Shown here piece after piece: positions 14,418 to 50,575 of a stretch of DNA of 64,000 nucleotides. The stretch is from Candidatus Spongiisociaceae bacterium. GTDB lineage: Bacteria > Actinomycetota > Acidimicrobiia > Spongiisociales > Spongiisociaceae. Each line of letters opens with the position of its first letter. Within the stretch, counting starts at the first letter, position 1. Under the pieces are notes generated by a model. That model was not told where the DNA came from, did not search any database, and saw only the letters and a program-made list of their open reading frames with translations. Made by a program: the position numbers and the translations under genes. The stretch covers positions 448,001 through 512,000 of the forward strand of contig OZ253564.1 in NCBI GenBank assembly GCA_965262915.1, written 5' to 3'.

Positions 14418-14524
14418 ACTTGCCGTCTACGCCGGACGCCTGAAGGCTGACACCGGTTCCCGGATCACGACGAGGTATCGGTTTCCATAGCCAACTCGAG
14501 GTACTCCCGCATCATTCGCACTCG

Positions 14525-15071
14525 TACACCTCGGCTAGCAATTATGGCGCAACGCTACTCCGCTGAAAGGCAGAGAAGACCAGGGGTCTCCCTGAGATCC
14601 CATTGATCCTCGGGAAGCACCGCGGCCGCCATTCCCTGCCGAACCCTGATAAGCCCCGAGCTCTCCAGTTGCTGGATGGCTTCGCGCATCACGGTCTTGC
14701 TGACACCGAACCGCTCCACCAGCTCATCGGCAGGCGGTGGGGATCTGTCATTGAGTATTACCTCTGAAACCACGTCCAGGGCAACAGCCGCGGCGACTGG
14801 ATCGCGCATCTTGGTACGTGGTACCGCCTCTATCGGCCGGGTACTCAGGCTCACAGCTGCCAATCTGGCACCTGGGTCATGTACCCTCCGTTGGCAGTGC
14901 CTGTCACAGCGTATCAGTCATATGATCGTCTACAGTAAGGTCATATTGTCTTAATGTCACCGTGTTGTGCAGGTTCCACTCAATCTCAAGTGGAGCCCGT
15001 TCTCCCATGTCCATTATGATGCAGACCTGGATCGTTTGCTTGAGGCGCCGGAGCAAGCCATGGTTGTCGTG
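14525..15071. repeat. 547-bp apparently identical direct repeat, copy 1 (partner 23468-24014)
   Basis: Constant offset of 8943 bp; identical ORF translations in both copies. Confidence 0.92.
14555..14863 (-). pseudogene. GntR/FadR-family regulator, HTH fragment (copy 1)
   Basis: PPPADELVERFGVSKTVMREAIQQLESSGLIRVRQG winged-HTH; effector domain frameshifted and lost. Confidence 0.8.
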
Positions 15072-17741: not shown

Positions 17742-18059
17742 TCAGGTTGAACGGAACCGGCCTGTTCCTCGAAGTGCCCGCCACAGCCCGTCGACCTCCG
17801 GTTCGGGGTCCTCAGCGAGACGTTCCAAAACGGCGGGCAGGGCCCAGCGGCTTTTGGCTACCCCCGTCCGCACACTCGGATGGGGATCCCCCACGAGGTG
17901 GGCAACCAGCCCGGGAGGTGTCCAATGTCCGGAAGTTATCTGGACACGATGACCCGGATCCTCGGCGAGACGGTCCCGCACCTCCGGTGGTATGTCTTGG
18001 CTGCCCGCGACCCATGCCCGCAACTCGGCGTCCGGGTCCCCGGCCATACGGGTCGCCAC
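17742..18059 (-). CDS. Short HEAT/LRV-repeat protein, probably a remnant
   Basis: Repeated (L)AxDPxxxVR units: MAGDPDAELR, LAEDPGHRVQ, LVGDPHPSVR, LAEDPEPEV. Confidence 0.45.
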   Translation of the reverse strand: MATRMAGDPDAELRAWVAGSQDIPPEVRDRLAEDPGHRVQITSGHWTPPGLVAHLVGDPHPSVRTGVAKSRWALPAVLERLAEDPEPEVDGLWRALRGTGRFRST

Positions 18060-18567
18060 ATCAGCAGCCGACGTAGCCGAATCGTCGCCTGCCCATACTG
18101 CTTACGAGCCTCGGCTAGCTTCTTGCGGAGCTCACCCAAATCGTCGAAAAACGCAATCCCGAACTCATTCCCTGTCCCAACAACTGGTTCCCGTACAGGC
18201 GCCATCACGCCCAGCGGATGTTCATAACTGAACTATGCGTACGAACCAGCTGTGACATCCCCTAGGTACCGTTCTGACTAACTGTTGCCCCAGGACAATA
18301 GCCCTTTCTATGGACTCGTGAACACTCCGGTGTTACTTAAGGTGTTCCTATTGGACTATGAAGGAGAACGAACGGGAGGCCATCATGGTACCCCGGGGGA
18401 GCCTACTGGGGGTTCGTGCCCCCCTTGTCTGCTGGTTGAGACAAGTCCTTGGGTTTCGTGGGCCCGCCCTCGATGGTGTATTTGCCTATTCAGAGATATT
18501 GGCAGAGCATCTCTAGTAACAGCCGACCGTTACCCCGATTATGGGCTCATCGATGCTCCTATGGTTG

Positions 18568-19799
18568 TCAAGTCGGTGATGGGGCCGGTTGGTGGGTTAG
18601 GAGCCAGGTCTGGTATTGGCTGGCGAGTTGGTGGTTGTGGTCTCGGCCGCGTTCGAGTGCGGAGATGCGGCTGGGGTGGGTTCCGAGCTGTTGGGCGGCC
18701 TGGGTGACGGTGATGTTGGCGTGTTGACGTCGGCGGCGGAGCCGGGCGCAGTTCGGGGTTGGTGGCGGGTTGGTCAGCAGTCGGTAGATCTGTGGGGCGA
18801 TGTGCCGCTTGAGGCAGCGGATGATCTCTTTTCGGTTCTTTGCTTCCCCCTGGCGCCGTGCCACGTATTGGTTGGTGGCTGCGTCGTGGCGTATCCGGGT
18901 GGTAGCGCATCGGCCAGAGCGCGTTGTTGGCTTGGCGGTTACCTCCCCGGTTGAGACGATGCCGGATGGTCTGTCCCGATGATGCCTGGACGGGGCTGGC
19001 GCCACACAGCGCGGCGAAGGACCGTTCTGATTTCATACGCTGGGGGTTGTCGCCGGCTGCGACTAGCAGGGCGGCTGCTGTGTCAGGGCCCACACCTTTG
19101 GCGGCTAACAGAGCCGGGTTAGCCTCGGCGCAGAGGCGACGGATCTCGATCTTGAGTTCTGCGATTTCTGTGTCGAGGGCTTGGTATCGGCGGGCCAGGT
19201 AGCGTAGAGCCATCTTCGGCGTACGCGGTCGTGGTCTGTGCTTGGCGGGGACGCCAGCGGGCACAGACCCGAACCCGGGCCTTGAGCTTGAGACCTCTGA
19301 GCTGGCGTTTTACCTGTTCAGGTGCAGTAACGGCCACAGAATGGATCTGGTTAGCGGCCTGGGTGCGGGCCTTGGTAGCGGAGCGGCGGGCCATCAACAA
19401 CATCCGTATGCACTCAACGGGGCCGTCACCAGATTTGGGAACTGCGGTAGCTTGCCCCGAGGCCGCTGCCCGAGCTGCCGCCTCGGCGTCGACGCTGTCG
19501 GTCTTGCCGCCCCGCTGGCGGCGTAGCTGCCGGTTCGGCCGGTTCACTTCTACCACCTCGATGCCCGCCGCCATCAGATAGCGGGCTAGGCCGGCGCCGT
19601 AGCTGCCGGTGCCCTCCACTCCTACCCGGAGCAGGTGCCCGTGGGTTCCGAACCACCTGGTCATCTGCTCATATCCGACCGGATCAGCCCCGAACGGAGC
19701 GGTTCCCAGCACTCGACCGGCGTTGTCGACCACCGCCGCAACATGGGTATCACGATGGGTATCAACCCCACCGAACACAACCCGACCATCTTCTTCCAT
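18568..19799 (-). pseudogene. IS110 DEDD recombinase with C-terminal XRE-type HTH, two frameshifts
   Basis: GGVDTHRDTH, VGVEGTGSYG, KTDSVDAEAAA; GVGPDTAA, SPVQASSG (catalytic Ser), RGGNRQAN; LRRRRQHANITVTQAAQQLGTHPSRISALERG. Frames change near 19215 and 18912. Confidence 0.88.
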
Positions 19800-19829
19800 G
19801 ACGCCTTCCTCCTCTGTGGGATAGAATCA

Positions 19830-20020
19830 CTTCCTAATCCTCGGACCCGGAAGGCGGTTGGACAGACCACTCACGGTGGAGAACTCGAAGGCTCCTATTA
19901 GGTCACATCCGCCCCGGGTCAGGGGGTTACGCCCTAGGCCGGGAACAGGCCGACAGATCGATGAAAAGGCACAAGGCCAGATTTCAGTTGGGTCAGACCC
20001 GTCCCAGCCCAGGAACCTTC
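19830..20020 (-). ncRNA. Predicted IS110 bridge RNA
   Basis: Two loops in the non-coding end carry segments matching the target flanks (19980-19988, 19959-19965) and the element's own ends (19891-19898, 19868-19874). Boundaries approximate. Confidence 0.75.
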
Positions 20021-20036
20021 TAAGTATGAGTGGATT

Positions 20037-21338
20037 TCAGTGGGGAGTGACGGTGGCGAGGAGGTCCCAGTTGGGTTTCCCCGCGTAGAGGAGTGCCCGG
20101 ATTCGGTAGTTCGCGAAGTTGGGTAACCCGAACGCGATGCGTTTGATCCGCTTTATGAGGTTGTTGAGGGCTTCGGTGGGTCCGTTGGTTACCTTCGAGA
20201 TGTGCCAGTTGGTGATCTGGGGGGTCCAGCGGGCGATGGTACGTCCGAGCTTGTTGATCTCGGGTGGGCAGGATTCGTCCTGGAGGTCGTCTGCGAGCTG
20301 GAGGGTGTATTGGAGAGCGAGGGCGGGGCTGTCGATCTTGTAGATGCCTCTCACGGTTTCCTTCGCGTGCCAGGCTGTGCGCACTTCGCCGTGGGGGTCA
20401 CCAGCGTCGAGGAGTCCGCGCAGGCGGGTTTGGCCGCGGTCGCTGATCTTGTCGTGGGCGGCGGTGAGGAGGCGCCGTATCCCATAGAGTGGGTCTCCTT
20501 TCCGGCCTCTGTGTCCGAGGGTTTCGTTTTGGACTCTTCTGCGTACTTCGTCGAGACGCTGGTTGGCGAGGCGGCTGACACCGAACGGGTCCGCTACCCC
20601 GGGGGCGTGGGGCAGCACCCTGTCATACGCCTTCCGATACGAACCGGACATGACCCGACACCGCCCAGCGGATAGCCTCACACCATTCGGTGGGCTGCGC
20701 CCGGAACCAGGCTGCGGCGCTTTCTGCCGTTCTACCAGGGACTATGTCGATCAGCTGGTGGCCCCCAACGTCGACGACAGAGGTGCACCAGACTTTGGTG
20801 CGCCACCGGCCTTTCCGCCAGAACAACGCTTCTTGTCGATGCCCACAGCTCCGACCTCGCCTATCCGATCGGTGTCGGCTTCCAACAGGGCTTCGCCCCA
20901 GCGGACGACCTCGTTGTTCACCGTATGCCAATCACAACCCAACTCCGCGGCGACCTCGTCGACCGAACGGCCCCGCCCACCCACCTGGACGGTCACCCAC
21001 CGCGCCGCTCGGGATGTCAACAACGCCCGTTCGGGACCAATCGTGGGGTCTTGTTCGATGAACGACCTGAGCGCACAGTCCGGATTCGGACACGTCCAGC
21101 GCCGTTTCCTCCACCGCAGCCGCACAGGCCGACTGAACGCCGGTAAATCCACCAACACCACACTCCGATAGCCCTTCGACCACACCGACCCGCCACATGC
21201 CACACACAACGGGCGGGCCTTGCGGGACCCGATCACCACCTCAAGAGGTGCACCCTCGCCCGGGTCGTTGATCCCCACCAGATCAACCTCACCTAGGCCT
21301 ACCAACTTCTCGCACATGCGCGTAGGATCAGCTTCCAC
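20037..21338 (-). pseudogene. ISL3 transposase, frameshifted (copy A)
   Basis: Homologous to the intact 26782-28116 ORF but split into 20751-21338 and 20037-20681. Confidence 0.9.
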
Positions 21339-21864
21339 AGGGGTCCTCCTGCCTCGGATGTCATTACCAACACCCGATTATGGAGGACCCCTCCTCACTT
21401 CTGGTGGATTCCAACTCCCCCTGGCAGATCCCCTACTCCCCACTCATTTCCGAAGAGCCCGATTATGCAGGCGGTTCGGGTAGCCTCCACACCTGTGAAC
21501 CCCGTCGAATATCTCCAGTAAGACCGATACCGTGGTCGAAGTCTTGGCCCTCCCGCACCGTGTCCCCACCCTCGGGCCCAGCCGTCGCACAGTTCCTAGC
21601 CGCCAAACCCCTGTCCGCCAACGGGTCACGCGGACTCAAATCAGGGTCCCACGTCAGAACGAAGCGCCGCTCAGCTCCACGGACACGCTTCCCTGTCGTT
21701 GGTTGCGTTCTCACGGCACGACGAGGCTACTCATCCCTGGCTAACCGAGGCGGGTCGAGCCAATCGCTGGGAGGTTGTTGCGGCTTGGTCGTGCTTCAAC
21801 CGCTTCTCATAGGCGCCGAAGGCGCTTGGCGGCCCGCTCGACTATGACGCCACCTGTCTGCTGC

Positions 21865-23166
21865 TCACTCGAAGAGGGTGTGTGGCGGCCAGACTGCGAG
21901 GCACCATCTCGTTCCGCGATCGCCAGGCAGTGCGGGATAGTCGTCGGTGGCCCGTTCGCTCATCCGAAAGCAGAGGTCGCGAGGCTCGTTGGCAACGATT
22001 GCAAACCCCCGAATGTCGACTAAGCATGCTCGATCAAAGTTCATGGCCGTGATCTTGTAGTCGTCGATCCGGTACGCCCCGTAGATTTCCTTGGCACGCT
22101 TGGCTGCTTGTCCCTTGGACTCGCAGCCACGCAGTGCCTCCGGAATGAACGGCGTGATGAGTTCCCAACGCCCATGGCGCCACGCCTCAAGGAAGGCGGA
22201 GGCGGCAGCAGCGGCAGGATGGGATGCGAACTCCGGTGCAGCGGGATCGAGGGTCCATGGGACGAATTCGTCGCTGTGCTTCCGAAATCGACGGTTCCGG
22301 CTGAGCTGCTCAAGTGACTCTGTGAACGTCGGCCCTGGCTCCTCGGGGACGGCTGCCTTCTTCGTGGCCTGTGCCCAGTCGACCACTGAGTAGAGCAAGT
22401 TCCATGCCTTTGTGGCGACGACCACGTTGTCGAAGTTGACGACTGATCCGTGAACGATCCCATGGCGGTAGACATCGTGGACCTCTTCGTCGATGCGCTT
22501 CTTAATGGACTTGGTGAATGTCTTCATGACGTGGGTGAGGCCCATGTGATGGCCGACAATGCTGTCCCAAGCGGTCATGTCGTCTGGATCACGGGCGGCA
22601 AGCCCCTTCCGTGCGCCGGGATCCAAGTCGTTGACATAGCCGTCCATCACCGCGATGAGTTGAAGGACACAGCTGTTGAAGTGGCCCGCCTCGTAGTGCT
22701 CCAGGGCGCGCTCTACCTGATGCAGGCGCTCGCGGAGGCCGTCCTGAGAGCGGAACCCGATCATCCGCCACTTAGTCGTCTCGCTGTCGCGATACAGGTC
22801 GATCAAGCGGGATTCGGCGGCTTCAACGCTTGAGGTCTCGCTGAGCAGCGCTTCGATCTTGTCAAGGCTTAGGTAGTCGTGGAAGATCCAGTTGCGAGGG
22901 CCCAGCCGTTCGTAGAAGTCATCCACCAGCTCGGTCAACCGCAGCATCTTGCGCTCGATTTCGATTAGGTGCTTCCGTTGGTCCCTGGCGATCACCCGCG
23001 TGAGTAGCTTCATGCCCTGTAGCTGCGTCTCCATCTGTCGGAAGCTCGGGATGTCACGCGCCGAGCCGTAGGGCTTGGTCGGTGTTCGATTGAGGGTCCC
23101 GCGGTGGCCATAGAACGATTCTACCGAACAGATGTTCGCGCGCAAATAGGTGAGATTCAACGGCAA
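21865..23166 (-). CDS. Hypothetical protein with HEPN-like RxxxxH motif (start uncertain)
   Basis: Long ORF with a helical region ERALEHYEAGHFNSCVLQLIAVMDG and VYRHGIVHG. Confidence 0.6.
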   Translation of the reverse strand: MPLNLTYLRANICSVESFYGHRGTLNRTPTKPYGSARDIPSFRQMETQLQGMKLLTRVIARDQRKHLIEIERKMLRLTELVDDFYERLGPRNWIFHDYLSLDKIEALLSETSSVEAAESRLIDLYRDSETTKWRMIGFRSQDGLRERLHQVERALEHYEAGHFNSCVLQLIAVMDGYVNDLDPGARKGLAARDPDDMTAWDSIVGHHMGLTHVMKTFTKSIKKRIDEEVHDVYRHGIVHGSVVNFDNVVVATKAWNLLYSVVDWAQATKKAAVPEEPGPTFTESLEQLSRNRRFRKHSDEFVPWTLDPAAPEFASHPAAAAASAFLEAWRHGRWELITPFIPEALRGCESKGQAAKRAKEIYGAYRIDDYKITAMNFDRACLVDIRGFAIVANEPRDLCFRMSERATDDYPALPGDRGTRWCLAVWPPHTLFE

Positions 23167-23169
23167 GAT

Positions 23170-23806
23170 GCCTTGGGATTGCAGGCTCTTTGTGCATGGG
23201 CTGCCGCCTATTCGCGCGCGCTCTTAGCCTGAATCCACCGATTCATGTTCCGAAAACCAATCCTGACCACGGCGATCTCCGGGATCCACCACTCACAGGA
23301 AGTTGCTCCTCTTCTCAGGACCGAACTATCCTTACCAATAGCTATCGCCGCAGATCAGGAGGTATTTCCACCATATCTCCATGTCCGCTGCGCGCTCCCC
23401 ATCGGTGGATTCAGGCTTAGTCGGAGCGAGGCGCACGAGGTTCGGCTCCAGCAGCATTCGCACTTCATACACCTCGGCTAGCAATTATGGCGCAACGCTA
23501 CTCCGCTGAAAGGCAGAGAAGACCAGGGGTCTCCCTGAGATCCCATTGATCCTCGGGAAGCACCGCGGCCGCCATTCCCTGCCGAACCCTGATAAGCCCC
23601 GAGCTCTCCAGTTGCTGGATGGCTTCGCGCATCACGGTCTTGCTGACACCGAACCGCTCCACCAGCTCATCGGCAGGCGGTGGGGATCTGTCATTGAGTA
23701 TTACCTCTGAAACCACGTCCAGGGCAACAGCCGCGGCGACTGGATCGCGCATCTTGGTACGTGGTACCGCCTCTATCGGCCGGGTACTCAGGCTCACAGC
23801 TGCCAA
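23170..23806 (-). pseudogene. GntR/FadR-family regulator, decayed (copy 2, retains FCD traces)
   Basis: Same HTH as copy 1, then LAEVYEVRMLLEPNLVRLA (start of FCD) in a shifted frame with stops. Confidence 0.72.
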
Positions 23807-26768: not shown

Positions 26769-28202
26769 GGCTCATCGGATTTCAGTGGGGAGTGACGGTG
26801 GCGAGGAGGTCCCAGTTGGGTTTCCCGGCGTAGAGAAGGGCGCGGATTCGGTAGTTCGCGAAGTTGCGGAACCCGAACGCGATGCGTTTGATCCGCTTTA
26901 TGAGGTTGTTGAGGGCTTCGGTGGGTCCGTTGGTTACCTTCGAGATGTGCCAGTTGGTGATCTGGGGGGTCCAGCGGGCGATGGTGCGACCGAGCTTGTT
27001 GATCTCGGGTGGGCAGGATTCGTGTTGGAGGTCGTCTGCGAGCTGGAGGGTGTATCGGAGAGCAAGGACCGGACTTTCGATCCCGTAGATGCCTCGTACC
27101 GTTTCCTTCGCGTGCCAGGCTGTGCGTACCTCCCCGTAGGGGTCACCGGCATCCAAAAGACCACGCAGCCGTGTTTGACCGCGGTCGCTGATCCTCTCGT
27201 GGGCGGCGGTGAGGAGGCGGCGTATCCGATACAGCGGGTCATCCTTGCGGCCTCGATGCCCGAGGGTTTCGTTCTGGGTGCGGCGTCGTACTTCGTCGAG
27301 TCGCTGGTTGGCGAGGCGGATGACGTGGAAGGGGTCTGCTACCTGGAGAGCGTTCGGGAGCACCCGGTTATACGCCTTCCGGTAAGGACCGGACATGTCC
27401 AACACCGCCCAGCGGATCCCGTCGAGCCACTCGGGGGGTTGGGATCGGAACCACGAAGCTGCGCTATCAGCCGTTCTACCAGGGACTATGTCGATCAGCT
27501 GGTGGCCTCCCACGTCGACGACAGAGGTGCACCAAACCTTGGTGCGCCACCGGCCTTTCCGCCAGAACAGCGTCTCGTCGATGCCCACAGCTTGGACCTC
27601 GCCTATCCGATCGGTGTCGGCCCCCAGGAGGGCTTCGCCCCAGCGGACGACCTCGTTGTTAACCGTATGCCAATCACAACCCAGCTCTGCGGCGACCTCG
27701 TCGACCGAACGGCCCCGCCCACCCACCTGGATGGTCACCCACCGGGCCGCTCGGGATGTCAACAACGCCCGTTGGGGACCAATCGTGGGGTCTTGTTCGA
27801 TGAACGATCTGATCTCACAGTCGGGGTTCGGGCACGTCCAGCGGCGTTTCCGCCACCGCAGCCGAACCGGACGGCCGAACGCCGGTAGATCCACCAACAC
27901 AACCGTTCTGTGACCCTTGGACCACACCGGGCCGCCACAGGACTCACACAACGGGCGGGGCTTGCGGGAACGGATCACCACCCCAAGCGGTGCACCCTCG
28001 CCCGAGTCGTTGATCCCTACCAGATCAACGTCGCCCAGGCCTACCAACAACTCGCACATGCGCGTAGGATCAGCTTCCACAGGGGTCCTCCTGCCTCGGA
28101 TGTCTTTTCTCAGCACCCGATTATGGAGGACCCCCCATCACTTCTGGTGGATTACCACTCCCCCTGGCAGATCCCCGACTCCCCACTCATTTCCGAAGAG
28201 CC
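26769..28202 (-). mobile_element. ISL3-family element, copy B (intact)
   Basis: IRs GGCTCATCGGA.../...TCCGAAGAGCC; 8-bp TSD AGTAATGC at 26761-26768 and 28203-28210. Confidence 0.95.
26782..28116 (-). CDS. ISL3-family transposase
   Basis: CESCG/CPNPDC Zn finger, GIDET, LDMSGPY, ADPFHV, TNGPTEALNNLIKRIKRIAFGFRNF. Confidence 0.95.
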   Translation of the reverse strand: MLRKDIRGRRTPVEADPTRMCELLVGLGDVDLVGINDSGEGAPLGVVIRSRKPRPLCESCGGPVWSKGHRTVVLVDLPAFGRPVRLRWRKRRWTCPNPDCEIRSFIEQDPTIGPQRALLTSRAARWVTIQVGGRGRSVDEVAAELGCDWHTVNNEVVRWGEALLGADTDRIGEVQAVGIDETLFWRKGRWRTKVWCTSVVDVGGHQLIDIVPGRTADSAASWFRSQPPEWLDGIRWAVLDMSGPYRKAYNRVLPNALQVADPFHVIRLANQRLDEVRRRTQNETLGHRGRKDDPLYRIRRLLTAAHERISDRGQTRLRGLLDAGDPYGEVRTAWHAKETVRGIYGIESPVLALRYTLQLADDLQHESCPPEINKLGRTIARWTPQITNWHISKVTNGPTEALNNLIKRIKRIAFGFRNFANYRIRALLYAGKPNWDLLATVTPH

Positions 28203-31335: not shown

Positions 31336-32775
31336 GGCTCATCGCGTTTCAGTGGGGAGTGACGGTCGCGAGTAGGTCCCAGTTGGGTTTCCCGGCGTAG
31401 AGAAGGGCGCGGATTCGGTAGTTCGCGAAGTTGGGTAACCCGAACGCTGCTCGTTTGATCCGTTTGATTAGGTTGTTGAGGGCTTCGGTGGCGTCTGTTG
31501 GTTACCTTCGAGATGTGCCAGTTGGTGATCTGGGGGGTCCAGCGGGCGATGGTGCGACCCAGCTTGTTGATCTCGGGTGGGCAGGATTCGTCCTGGAGGT
31601 CGTCTGCGAGCTGGAGGGTGTATCGGAGAGCAAGGACCGGACTCTCGATCCCGTAGATGCCCCGTACCGTTTCGGTTGCGTGCCAGGCTGTGCGTACCTC
31701 CCCGTGGGGGTCACCGGCATCGAGGAGGCCACGCAGCCGTGTTTGACCGCGGTCGCTGATCCTCTCATGCGCGGCGGTGAGGAGGCGGCGTATCCGATAC
31801 AGCGGGTCATCCTTGCGGCCTCTGTGTCCCAGGGTCTCGTTGGGGACCCTTCGTCGTAGGTCGTCGAGACGCTGGTTGGCTAGGCGGATGACACCGAACG
31901 GGTCCGCTACCTGCAGCGCGTGGGGCAGCACCCTGTCATACGCCTTCCGATACGAACCGGACATGACCCGACACCGCCCAGCGGATAGCCTCACACCATT
32001 CGGTGGGCTGCGCCCGGAACCAGGCTGCGGCGCTTTCTGCCGTTCTACCACCGACTATGTCGAACCGGCTGGTGGCCTCCCACGTCGACGACAGAGGTGC
32101 ACCAGACCTTGGTGCGCCACCGGCCTTTCCGCCAGAACAACGCTTCTTGTCGATGCCCACAGCTTGGACCTCGCCTATCCGGTCGGTGTCGGCCCCCAGG
32201 AGGGCTTCGCCCCAGCGGCCGACCTCGTTGTTCACCGTATGCCACCCACAACCAAGCTCTGCGGCGACCTCGTCGACCGGGCGACCCCGCCCACCCACCC
32301 CGATGGTCACCCACCTCGCCGCTCGGGATGTCAACAACGCCCGTTGGGGACCAATCGTGGGGTCTTGCTCGATGAACGATCTGAGCGCACAGTCGGTGTT
32401 CGGACATGTCCAACGGCGTTTCCGCCACCGCAGCCGAACCGGACGGCCGAACGCCGGTAAATCCACCAACACCACCGTCCGCTCACCCTTGGACCACACC
32501 GGGCCACCACAGGCCTCACAGGACGGGCGGGGCTTGCGAGACCCGATCACCACCCCAAGCGGTGCACCCTCGCCCGAGTCGTTGATCCCTACCAGGTCAA
32601 CGTCGCCTAGGCCTACCAACTTCTCGCACATGCGCGCAGGGATCAGCTTCCACAGGGGTCCTCCTGCCTCGGATGTCGCTTATCAACAGCCGATTATGGA
32701 GGACCCCTCCTCACTTCTGGTGGATTCCGATCCCCCCTGACAGATCCCCTACTCCCCACCCATTCGCGAAGAGCC
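31336..32775 (-). mobile_element. ISL3-family element, copy C (frameshifted transposase, non-matching flanks)
   Basis: Ends GGCTCATCGCG.../...CGCGAAGAGCC; flanks AGTAATCG and ACTTTACG differ. Confidence 0.92.
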
Positions 32776-49039: not shown

Positions 49040-50575
49040 ATGAAAGATAGATCTTCCCGACCAAAGGGCATGACCCTCGGGGTGTTGTTGGTGGTTATGG
49101 CCCTGATCGCCGCAGCTTGCGGCGACGACGAGCCGGCTGCCACCACAGCCGCCCCGGCTGCGACGACTGCGGCGCCCGCCACGACCGAGGCGGCTATGGA
49201 GGAAACGGAGACGACCGAGGCGGCTCCTGCCACGACCGAGGCGGCTATGGAGGAAACGGAGACGACCGAGGCGGCTCCTGCCACCACCGAGGCGATGGAG
49301 GAAACGACCACCACCCTCGCGCAGCTCGAGCCCGCCACCATCCAGTTCTGGCACGTCTACAGCGGGCCGCTGGAAGAGGCGATGAACGAACTCGTGGCCA
49401 GGTTCGAGGCCAAGTATCCCCAGATAGACGTGGAGGCCCAGTTCACCGGGGGCTACTACCCGACCTCCCAGAAGATCGCGGGCGCCATCGAGGCCGACGA
49501 CCTCCCGAACCTGACGGTCGCCTTCGAGGACGGGGCGGTCAACTGGGGACGTGCCGGCGTCCTGCTCGACCTGACCGACTACGTGAGCGATCCGGCAATC
49601 GGGGTTGACGTGGCCGACTTCCTGCCGGTGGAGATCGCCAGGAACACCTACCTGTCCGAGGGTGGGCGGATGCTCAGCTTCCCGTGGACGGTGGCGATCG
49701 CGGTGATGTTCCACAACCTGGACATGCTGAACGGCCTGGGTTTCGACGGTCCGGCCGAGACCTGGGACGAGTTCCTTGCCCAGTGCGAGGTGATCCTCAC
49801 CGAACTGAACAAGAGCTGTTACTCGATACAGGTCGACGCCTCCATGTGGAATGCCACGGGCTTCACCTACGGAGGTTTCCCGACCATTGACGTCGAGGCG
49901 CGGGCCACCAGGTACGGTGAAGAGCCGTGGACCAAGGCTCTGGACCTCTTCGCGACCGTCATCGAAAAGGGTTACGGGTTCCCGACAGTGGGCCGGGCCG
50001 ACGAGGCGACAGCCAACCTGAGCGACTTCGCCTCCCAGCAGGTCGCCTACATAATGACCTCCAGCCGCTGGGTTCCTTTCGTAGAGGAGGGAGTAGCCGG
50101 CGCCTTCAACTGGAGCGTGGGAGCTATCCCGCAGGAGTTCGAGGGCGCCGATCCGGTGACGGTTCTGTTCGGTCCCAACGCGGTAGCGTTCAACACCACC
50201 GAGGCCGAGAACCTGGCCACGTGGGAGTTCATCAAGTTCCTGTCGAGCCCGGATAGCCAGGCCTACTGGGCGGCCACGTCTGGCAACCTGCCCAGCAGGT
50301 TGAGCGTTGGTGACTCGGCCGAGTACTCGGCCTTCCTGGAGACCTCGCCGCCGATGGCGGCTGCTTGGGAGATCCTTCCCTACGCTCTTTCGGAGTTGCC
50401 GATGACCGACGAGGGCAACCTGGGCCCGCCCCCGTTCTCCTTCCGAATTCTCCAGCAGGACGTGCAGGCGGAACTCCTCACCGGCAATATGAGCCGCGAG
50501 GAGGCACAGCGCAAGCTCGTCGAGGATGGCGCGACCCTGCTCGGCGAGTACTACGCGAGACTGTTCGATTCGTAA
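49040..50575 (+). CDS. ABC transporter solute-binding lipoprotein (family 1, UgpB-like)
   Basis: Lipobox LIAAAC; T/A/E-rich linker; IQFWH, PAETWDE, TWEFIKFL, SGNLPSR. Confidence 0.88.
   Translation: MKDRSSRPKGMTLGVLLVVMALIAAACGDDEPAATTAAPAATTAAPATTEAAMEETETTEAAPATTEAAMEETETTEAAPATTEAMEETTTTLAQLEPATIQFWHVYSGPLEEAMNELVARFEAKYPQIDVEAQFTGGYYPTSQKIAGAIEADDLPNLTVAFEDGAVNWGRAGVLLDLTDYVSDPAIGVDVADFLPVEIARNTYLSEGGRMLSFPWTVAIAVMFHNLDMLNGLGFDGPAETWDEFLAQCEVILTELNKSCYSIQVDASMWNATGFTYGGFPTIDVEARATRYGEEPWTKALDLFATVIEKGYGFPTVGRADEATANLSDFASQQVAYIMTSSRWVPFVEEGVAGAFNWSVGAIPQEFEGADPVTVLFGPNAVAFNTTEAENLATWEFIKFLSSPDSQAYWAATSGNLPSRLSVGDSAEYSAFLETSPPMAAAWEILPYALSELPMTDEGNLGPPPFSFRILQQDVQAELLTGNMSREEAQRKLVEDGATLLGEYYARLFDS
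49178..49310 (+). repeat. 51-bp coding tandem repeat (ATTEAAMEETETTEAAP)
   Basis: Two identical units (49178-49228, 49229-49279) plus a degenerate third. Confidence 0.9.

Follow-up and report, generated by a model that had tools for sequence, protein, structure and literature searches.

In a 64,000-nucleotide stretch of the genome of Candidatus Spongiisociaceae bacterium (contig OZ253564.1, positions 448,001 to 512,000, forward strand; hereafter the window), an ISL3-family insertion sequence is split, within one of its terminal repeats, by a second insertion sequence that belongs to the IS110 group of the IS110 family and whose insertion into that repeat is, with a probability that we put at about 0.9, guided by a bridge RNA. 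Both bridge RNAs (2024) and IS110-family targeting of the repeats of other transposable elements (IS1383/IS1384, IS4321/IS5075) are known from the literature. The data set is unusually informative, though the mechanism is not new: it comprises 17 copies with one target code in one 5-Mb genome, in which one mobile element can be seen preying on another.

Alignment with two further ISL3 copies in the window, copies B and C, delimits a minus-strand IS110-family element of 1479 nt, at 18553-20031, with its left end (ACTCATA...) at 20031, its right end (...GGAGCAT) at 18553, and a frameshifted recombinase gene. Of the ISL3 terminal repeat, the outermost 9 bp, GGCTCATCG, lie on the plus strand at 18544-18552, and the inner piece of the repeat, (G)GATTTCAGTGGGG, begins at 20032/20033; a single base is common to both junctions (18552 and 20032, the two copies of the core), G on the plus strand and C in the sense of the element. 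Comparison with the empty site gives a 1-nt overlap, and a single C stands on both sides in all eight flank classes of the genome, with no multi-base target duplication. Terminal inverted repeats are absent from the IS110 ends (ACTCATA.../...GGAGCAT in 25 copies). The rest of the interrupted ISL3 element, copy A, occupies 20032-21459 on the minus strand, with its transposase in two ORFs (20037-20681 and 20751-21338) oriented like the inserted IS110. The IS110 has entered the ISL3 repeat at a distance of 9 bp from the repeat's tip, 4 nt past the ISL3 transposase stop codon, and the orientation is constant. An 8-bp ISL3 target-site duplication, CGATTATG, flanks the whole composite on the plus strand (18536-18543 on the left and 21460-21467 on the right; read directly and by alignment).

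The host is an ISL3-family element: copies A and B encode a transposase with a Pfam DDE_Tnp_ISL3 domain, a zinc ribbon and an HTH, the terminal inverted repeats are GGCTCATCGGATTTCAGTGGGG / GGCTCTTCGGAAATGAGTGGGG, and the 8-bp target-site duplications are CGATTATG and AGTAATGC. Copy B has an intact transposase ORF of 444 aa, the stop codon of which is 4 nt from the predicted insertion point, and carries an empty perfect target (26769-26790, plus strand; 22 nt, no mismatches). Copy C carries a variant repeat (31336-31357, plus strand; ...CGCGTTTC...) with two mismatches, at left-guide positions 8-9, adjoining the core. The 22-nt target had no match in the shuffled window. The initial annotation had described a 1480-bp IS110 splitting an ISL3 end, a duplication bracketing the composite, and an intact ISL3 end in copy B; alignment with copies B and C reproduces the first (1479 nt of insert plus the shared base), and the other two are found at the coordinates just given.

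Ahead of its recombinase gene, the element has a non-coding end of 232 nt, from the left end (20031) to the ATG (19799); its right end is short. By analogy with IS621, the 5' non-coding end would encode a bridge RNA of approximately 165-180 nt, and the four guide strings proposed in the initial annotation are all present on the minus strand, in two stem and internal-loop modules that have the order and polarity of IS621; the same annotation had claimed the target-loop/donor-loop architecture of IS110 bridge RNAs. The target-binding module (19937-20009; RNAalifold) consists of a stem around an internal loop and a small cap hairpin. Its left guide, ACTGAAATC (19980-19988), reproduces the 9 nt that lie directly left of the core C in the ISL3 repeat, and its right guide, TTCATCG (19959-19965), is complementary to CGATGA(G) on the right-hand side of the junction, with a G-U pair at the last position; the two guides of the target loop are thus predicted to read both strands of the ISL3 repeat, flanking the single C. 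The donor-binding module (19851-19915) has an outer stem (GGCGG.AU.GAC / GUC.CA.CCGCC) around two guides that would read the element's own joined ends: a left donor guide, ATAGGAGC (19891-19898), identical to the element's right end, and a right donor guide, GTGAGTG (19868-19874), complementary to the core C plus ACTCA(T) of the left end. The left donor guide covaries with the element end, reading GTAGGAGC in c18/c19 and ATAGAAGC in a relative. The register of the left target guide shifts by 1 nt: in seven classes the guide has the core C as its last base, and in four it stops just short of that base. The left donor guide ends 2 nt short of the core, and the simple IS621 rule predicts neither this gap nor the 1-nt register shift.

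The evidence for the fold comes from the family. In the target module, 93.8% of cells are paired, as against 34-50% in slid controls, six pairs are changed on both sides, and none of 500 shuffles reached the pairing score. Of 20 family members, 18 have minimum-free-energy folds that close the donor stem; in the MAFFT alignments, 1-nt shifts kept RNAalifold from recovering this outer stem. Folded as a single sequence, the 232-nt end does no better than its shuffles (z -1.75; 10 of 200 reach an equally good fold). A minimum-free-energy fold of the whole end that pairs its 5' end with the left donor guide was regarded as spurious. The scaffold, GGGTCTGAC, nine nucleotides, TGGC, and then GCCTTN, six nucleotides and ATCTGTCGGCC, is kept across 25 aligned copies. 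The two ISL3-targeting lineages share about 95% identity over positions 1-181 (181/190 positions, summed over rows), versus 78.7% for the coding sequence. An Rfam scan of 18000-22000 at E <= 1 gave no matches, a result with no bearing on function should this lineage lie outside every bridge-RNA model.

The guides covary with the flanks, as expected for an RNA-guided element. Across 11 guide/site classes, guides match their own flanks at 13-15 of 15 positions, whereas pairs of guides and flanks that do not belong together (116 pairs) match at a mean of 6.68 of 15. The genome contains 17 loops with ACTGAAATC/CGATGA, and 16 of the 17 lie at the same position of the ISL3 repeat; the expectation that copies with the same guides would all lie in ISL3 repeats thus holds for these 16 and fails for one copy, c2, at a site that its own guides do not match. 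The guide reading predicts insertion only in the perfect ISL3 repeat and in the CGAAGAGCC variant, and not in the ACGC variant or in the other end repeat. Occupancy of the natural sites is as follows: 16 left junctions are occupied and 12 + 3 matching sites are empty (the 12 empty perfect targets include the site in copy B), none of nine repeats of the ACGC variant (the type of copy C, with its two mismatches adjoining the crossover) is occupied, and none of 33 copies of the other ISL3 end repeat is occupied. The unoccupied perfect target that the initial annotation saw in copy B is therefore one of 12, and its suggestion that the substitutions in copy C escape targeting agrees with the occupancy of that type. 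Among decayed ISL3 copies, the contrast persists: the IS110 occupies 11 of the 14 that have a matching repeat and none of the five that have the variant. Judged from these natural sites, two core-adjacent mismatches appear to suffice for protection. Covariation of guides and flanks, together with the 16 of 17 copies in ISL3 repeats, supports the proposal that the element is an RNA-guided parasite of ISL3 ends.

The insertions were repeated. Eight IS110 copies are 99.3-100% identical, implying a recent burst, and their ISL3 hosts are just 85-98% identical; IS110 identity and host identity are uncorrelated (r 0.06). Near-identical IS110 elements in diverged ISL3 hosts show that the insertions were independent. 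A second lineage includes three identical copies. Comparison of copies and sites shows a family that has spread many times in this genome by what appears to be guided insertion. Each insertion divides an ISL3 repeat and probably immobilises that ISL3 copy; the transposase is decayed in 11 of 14 occupied ISL3 copies versus 3 of 17 empty matching copies.

The recombinase of the window copy is encoded on the minus strand in two frames, an N-terminal part with a DEDD RuvC-like domain (DEDD_Tnp_IS110, PF01548; 19119-19799) and a C-terminal part with a Transposase_20 domain (PF02371; 18539-19264), with Pfam scores of 84.3 and 58.5 bits. The frameshift is one additional C at window position 19219 relative to three sister copies. 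An intact sister copy scores 87.7 and 71.9 bits across the full profiles, and its 409-aa protein matches the solved recombinases ISCro4 (9t56, E 3e-14) and IS621 (8wt6, E 5e-11). Three parts of the ISCro4 alignment have identical residues at putative catalytic positions of the DEDD/serine recombinase (D, E, D, D and the conserved serine): vgvEgtgsy contributes the E, ktDsvDa the D..D and assGq the SG, and the first D is not covered by the aligned stretch. In the C-terminal extension there is an extra match to HTH_31/HTH_3, at residues 351-386.

Since its recombinase is broken, the window copy would be movable only with help in trans, from intact sister copies. The recombinase genes of the close sisters c3, c4 and c7 are broken as well, and this raises the possibility that the copies are relics: that past RNA-guided insertion was real and the family is now inactive in this genome. 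The same reading would accommodate the 12 perfect targets that are still empty and the absence of a circle junction from the contigs of four sequencing runs. It is nevertheless unlikely, because 10 of 13 copies examined retain a full-length ORF (366-436 aa) that has the family C-terminus and ends within the element, because the eight nearly identical copies imply a recent burst, and because another lineage has three identical copies.

A different possibility is that the site is chosen mainly by protein-DNA recognition, for example by the C-terminal HTH, with RNA complementarity secondary or regulatory. The HTH_31/HTH_3 match at residues 351-386, for which the 328-residue chain of IS621 in the PDB has no room beyond the aligned region, would provide a candidate reader; the 1-nt slack of the left guide hints at a determinant of the cut besides left-guide pairing; and a 2026 preprint reports a second layer of specificity in ISPpu10. 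However, closely similar C-terminal extensions go with at least eight different targets, and the targets follow 15 variable RNA positions within an otherwise invariant scaffold, so that a protein reader would need to change in step with the targets. We consider it very unlikely that protein recognition is the main determinant. In a further alternative, a single chance insertion produced an ancestral composite that was later copied whole, through ISL3 transposition or duplication, so that the common position of its descendants would be uninformative on targeting. This history would account for the exactly identical junctions of all composites and for the target-site duplication that surrounds the entire composite in the window, but is scarcely credible given the lack of correlation between IS110 and host identities (r 0.06), a pair of hosts 98.2% identical that carry IS110s just 80.9% identical, a split repeat that retains only 9 bp at its outer end, and guide/flank covariation in ten other classes that is independent of any such history.

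For guided insertion by a bridge RNA, the ends of the element suggest a source of the RNA. The right end contains TTGACA (18566-18571, minus strand), which would become a -35 box only once the ends are joined in a circle, and the left end contains CATACT (20023-20028, minus strand), a -10 box 17 nt away across the junction. Joining of the ends through the shared C reproduces, in silico, the TTGACA, 17-nt spacer and CATACT reported in the initial annotation; other lineages have CATAAT at the left end and TTGACA or TTGCAA at the right end. In the proposed mechanism, this junction promoter would transcribe the bridge RNA from the excised circle; once loaded with it, the DEDD/serine recombinase would join the circle to its target by recombination at the common C. 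When the element is integrated, transcription that continues out of the ISL3 transposase gene is a further possible source of the RNA; a search of the minus strand in this integrated form revealed no sigma-70-like site. Contigs from RNA libraries (two runs of one study) cover 19854-20090, possibly through DNA carry-over, and since they run into ISL3 they do not show a start at the circle junction. Parts of the coding sequence have no RNA-library contigs over them, a gap that is uninformative.

Among known systems, the element is closest to the bridge-RNA elements of the IS110 group, IS621 included (Durrant et al., 2024, PMC11208160; Hiraizumi et al., 2024, PMC11208158). Shared features are a DEDD plus PF02371 recombinase, a left end with a long non-coding stretch ahead of the gene, a target loop that precedes the donor loop, a left guide of nine bases that has the top-strand sequence with a right guide complementary to that strand, a promoter rebuilt across the circle junction (here predicted), and repeated sequences as targets. 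Relative to IS621, the target here is an ISL3 terminal repeat rather than a REP sequence, the visible core common to donor and target is one base (C) rather than a CT dinucleotide, the right guide has 6-7 nt rather than four, the recombinase has 409 aa with a C-terminal HTH, and the left-guide register varies by 1 nt. The separate 5' stem-loop of IS621 is missing from the ISL3-targeting lineages and present in sister lineages c18-c22. Intact HTH-bearing recombinases, a single-base core and a flexible left-guide register are all testable features.

Specificity of an IS110-family element for the terminal repeat of another insertion sequence has a precedent in Pseudomonas putida H, where the inverted repeats of IS1384 are the integration site of IS1383 (Muller, Lauf & Hermann, 2001; as cited in PMC11208160). 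The two cases, compared by description only, differ in the host element, which there is of the IS5 family according to a table in PMC5141477 and here is ISL3, and in the organism, which there is a proteobacterium; that table also rules out an assignment of IS1384 to the ISL3 family. In the IS1111 group, the sites chosen by IS4321 and IS5075 are terminal repeats of Tn21-family transposons (Partridge & Hall, 2003; as cited in PMC11208160); both are likewise DEDD-recombinase elements that occupy one position and orientation in the end repeat of another transposon. According to Siddiquee et al. (2024, PMC11187229), a seekRNA from the non-coding region of IS1111/IS110 elements picks the site. IS1111-group elements have subterminal inverted repeats and a downstream non-coding region, whereas the element here has no such repeats and an upstream non-coding region, which places it in the IS110 group.

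The scaffold extends beyond this genome. A covariance-model search of 29 genomes of the family found it in 12 genomes, in two of seven genera, and ISL3-type guides occurred in none of the 27 loci examined from relatives. Where both flanks of relatives were available, the left guide matched at 7 or more of 9 positions in 8 of 11 loci and the right guide at 5 or more of 6 in all 11; two relatives, L063 and L074, match at only 3 of 9 left-guide positions, and their left ends may be misplaced. A scan of genome contigs for the exact 19-nt junction gave three loci, and the same ISL3::IS110 composite is present twice in another Acidimicrobiia genome. A Pseudomonas record returned by the junction scan was rejected as a chance match without IS110 features.

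Besides the ISL3 code, the genome holds at least seven further target codes on the same scaffold, and in sister lineages the donor guides are kept and the target guides differ, so the genome shows target loops diverging with donor loops fixed. A broader interpretation, which we offer tentatively and at rather worse than even odds, is that the genus may hold a cross-guided guild of IS110 lineages, with at least eight target codes in one genome and a single donor code, in which the ISL3-targeting lineages act as hyperparasites that immobilise ISL3, with ISL3 subfamilies escaping by substitutions adjacent to the crossover. Under that interpretation, one donor code kept by all would allow the bridge RNA of any lineage to mobilise any circle. 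A search of the genome for 20-bp left-end plus right-end footprints found none. Dozens of natural targets with 0, 1, 2 or 3+ mismatches and readable occupancy provide a view of specificity in vivo.

Copy c2 (G000:C1:3663633-3665109) is 99% identical to the window copy. The idea that its site is a donor look-alike, a half match, was discarded: the donor match, by eye, is about 5/9 + 2/6, which is at chance level. The site agrees with the copy's own guides at 5/9 + 2/6 positions, compared with 8/9 + 5/6 for those of lineage c20-22. By these matches, c2 appears to have been placed by the guides of a sister lineage and, if so, is a natural record of cross-guiding between lineages.

We established the structure of the composite by reading positions 18300-21700 of the window and by aligning the ends of its three ISL3 copies. 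Copy A is bracketed by an 8 bp ISL3 target-site duplication, CGATTATG (18536-18543 and 21460-21467), and its terminal repeat, GGCTCATCG|GATTTCAGTGGGG, is split behind base nine by an IS110 element (18553-20031), with one and the same base at both junctions (18552 and 20032; G on the plus strand, C in element sense). ISL3 domains are present in the ORFs on either side of the insert. Within the insert, DEDD_Tnp_IS110 and Transposase_20 lie in different frames; the break between them is an additional C at 19219 that the sister IS110 copies c2, c3, and c4 lack. The repeat is uninterrupted in copy B (26769-26790) and has two substitutions in copy C (31336-31357); the ISL3 repeat target finds no match in shuffles of the window. 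The initial annotation had described an IS110 nested in an ISL3 terminal repeat inside an ISL3 duplication, an unoccupied, perfect target in copy B, and four guide strings in the non-coding end; the sequence and the end alignment bear out the nesting, the copy B target is as described, and direct reading finds all four strings in place.

The other ISL3 repeat of the composite (21438-21459; CCCCACTCATTTCCGAAGAGCC on the plus strand) includes CACTCAT, which equals the shared C, or core, followed by bases 1-6 of the IS110 left end, and is the heptamer read by the right donor guide. That repeat is without IS110 in 33 of 33 cases, and the occurrence of CACTCAT in it may be a coincidence.

Aligned over their first ~300 nt, 25 IS110 copies show a non-coding end that consists of an invariant scaffold and two variable boxes: the first of nine bases, with GACYCN on one side and TGGC on the other, the second of six to seven bases, from GCCTTN to ATCTGTCGG. 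RNAalifold places the boxes face to face across an internal loop with a long closing stem and a small hairpin cap. In a 16-sequence alignment, this target module comprises 19 pairs, formed in 93.8% of cells and changed on both sides in six pairs; neither the observed pairing nor the covariation score was reached by any of 500 shuffles, and pairing falls to 34-50% when partners are slid by 1-3 columns. A second, donor module, which contains ATAGGAGC and GTGAGTG, has the same GAC/GUC closure; the minimum-free-energy fold includes its outer stem in 18 of 20 sequences, and the RNAalifold results on the alignments lack it. The whole end, folded as one, does no better than shuffles, and has no match in Rfam. 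Joining the element ends through the shared C creates TTGACA, 17 nt, CATACT, as initially proposed; on the element strand, no sigma-70-like site is present before the ends are joined, in the integrated copy. In IS621, the target loop precedes the donor loop, the left guide has the very sequence of the top strand, and the right guide is its complement (PMC11208160); alignments and folds show the same loop order and guide polarity here, in agreement with the bridge-RNA architecture first proposed.

To compare guides with insertion sites we scored the two boxes of each lineage against every lineage's flanks. Over 11 guide/site classes, of which the element's own genome provides eight and relatives provide three, the guides of a class agree with its own flanks at 13-15 of 15 positions, versus a mean of 6.68 and a maximum of 13 for the 116 non-own pairs, and donor guides shift along with differing element ends (GTAGGAGC in copies c18 and c19, ATAGAAGC in a relative). 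Guides therefore covary with targets, as expected from the initial reading. The registers differ in detail: the left guide, nine bases long, has the shared C as its last base in seven classes and stops one base earlier in four, among them the ISL3 class (window 19980-19988); right guides start at the core without exception; and the left donor guide ends 2 nt short of it. In one relative, a single left guide is used at CGCGAAAAC| and also at CGCGAAAAAC|.

In its own genome, G000, where the window spans C1:448001-512000, the element belongs to a family with 43 matching places by DNA search (45 HSPs by blastn). Both ends read ACTCATA...GGAGCAT, with C flanking each side, in 25 of 26 near-full copies. 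Fifteen of these copies, and a sixteenth for which only the left junction is present, sit at one identical position of the ISL3 repeat, CCCCACTGAAATC-C / C-GA[T/A]GAGCC; they form two lineages with a mutual identity of 80.5%. A full-length ORF (366-436 aa) ending within the element is present in 10 of 13 copies examined (c2, c5, c6, c9, c11, c14, c20, c23, c24, and c25), the recombinase of the ISL3-targeting lineages being 409 aa long; c3, c4, and c7 have a frameshift, as does the window copy. The intact recombinase matches the solved transposases ISCro4 and IS621. It has a C-terminal extension (window about 18640-18750, minus strand; the intact form of the protein is at L002:1520-2746, the c2 locus) in which residues 351-386 match HTH_31 (31.3 bits against a cutoff of 27) and HTH_3 (26.8 bits against a cutoff of 23); the extension falls outside the ISCro4-aligned region in one alignment, and the IS621 match also stops at residue 346.

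Among 35 modules parsed in this genome, 17 have the target-guide pair of the window copy (the ISL3 code), 16 of them within ISL3 repeats. The expectation that insertions with this guide pair all lie in ISL3 repeats holds with one exception, c2 (G000:C1:3663633-3665109, outside the window). This copy shares 99% identity with the window copy and encodes an intact recombinase of 409 aa, but is not in any ISL3. The c2 flanks match its own guides at 5/9 and 2/6 positions, versus 8/9 and 5/6 for the guides of lineage c20-22, the top score among the 116 non-own pairs. Because donor guides and ends are common to the lineages, it is plausible that c2 insertion was guided in trans by RNA of the sister lineage c20-22. 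Separately, at loci L051 (G000:C1:541743-543605) and L046 (G000:C1:2007616-2009543), the right flank of the c25-type copy contains the left target of the c18-type lineage, GGTGAAATC, and resembles the c18 insertion site over about 50 nt, so that the two lineages aim at adjacent positions of one repeated sequence.

Across 14 IS110 copies, pairwise identity does not correlate with that of the adjoining 500 nt of ISL3 (r 0.06). In one lineage, eight copies are 99.3-100% alike but lie in hosts that are 85-98% alike, and two hosts that are 98.2% identical carry IS110s that are 80.9% identical. By these comparisons, the composites arose by separate insertions rather than by the copying of a single composite. 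The two ISL3-targeting lineages have identical guides; their identity is 95.9% in the target module, 90.8% in the donor module, 78.7% in the coding sequence, and 64.7% in the stretch from RNA to start codon.

Genome-wide, there are 16 left and 20 right occupied junctions, and 12 perfect empty targets plus three with CGAAGAGCC. None of nine ACGC-type repeats (the copy C variant) is occupied, and none of 33 other ISL3 ends, which match the guides at 6/9 and 5/6 positions. Among 38 near-full ISL3 copies classed (two as 'other'), the transposase is intact in 14 of 17 with an empty matching repeat, in three of 14 that are occupied (broken in 11), and in none of five with an empty ACGC repeat. In decayed ISL3 copies, 11 of 14 matching repeats are occupied versus 0 of 5 variant repeats (one-sided exact test ~0.005 by hand calculation, a test that overstates the case, since the copies are related). 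These results support the proposal that the copy C substitutions escape insertion. The link between occupation and decay, for which occupied copy A (20037-21338) and copy B (26782-28116) provide a contrast within the window, may reflect decay after immobilisation, or age alone.

In a search of 29 genomes of the family with a covariance model of the target module, the scaffold is present in 12 genomes, belonging to two of seven genera. None of the conclusions drawn here relies on the unpublished genome G028. Relatives yield 21 distinct module/flank combinations; in the 11 having both flanks, the left match is at least 7/9 in eight and the right match at least 5/6 in all. At loci L063 and L074 the left match is only 3/9, and the left-end motif match is imperfect. 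The ISL3 code is absent from every locus fetched from relatives; another Acidimicrobiia genome has the exact left junction twice, one per lineage.

Taken together, sequence comparison supports RNA-guided IS110 insertion into ISL3 repeats, in line with the initial suggestion of an RNA-guided parasite of ISL3 ends. Bridge RNAs of IS110 elements (PMC11208160) and seekRNAs of IS1111/IS110 elements (PMC11187229) were published in 2024. Among IS110-family elements, IS1383 is reported to target repeats of IS1384, listed as IS5 family (table in PMC5141477), and IS4321/IS5075 are reported to target Tn21-family transposon repeats (both cited in PMC11208160); these resemble the present case in having another transposable element's repeat as target. 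Literature titles and abstract openings gave no ISL3 repeat as IS110 target, so the ISL3 target seems to be a new instance of a kind already known. The copies provide a natural data set on specificity, guide evolution, and the parasitising of one insertion sequence by another.

Two metatranscriptome runs of one study yield contigs over 19854-20090 that span the RNA region and extend into ISL3; they fit read-through from the ISL3 transposase gene, but may be of DNA origin. No circle junction was seen in four sequencing runs. In one contig of a metagenome run, X2, a single other base separates 18561 from 20022, giving an ISL3 repeat that holds only ~20 bp, the two IS110 tips; this footprint, with no counterpart in the element's own genome, may result from an internal deletion, or be a by-product of excision, in another strain. 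Elsewhere in the window, 14522-14821 and 23465-23764 are 100% identical stretches of at least 300 nt (repeat family D5), presumably another repeated element; a nearby 433-aa ORF (21865-23166) has no Pfam match. A 51-nt unit is repeated in tandem, with partial copies, at 49169-49318, inside an apparent coding region in which Thr, Glu, and Ala codons are abundant.
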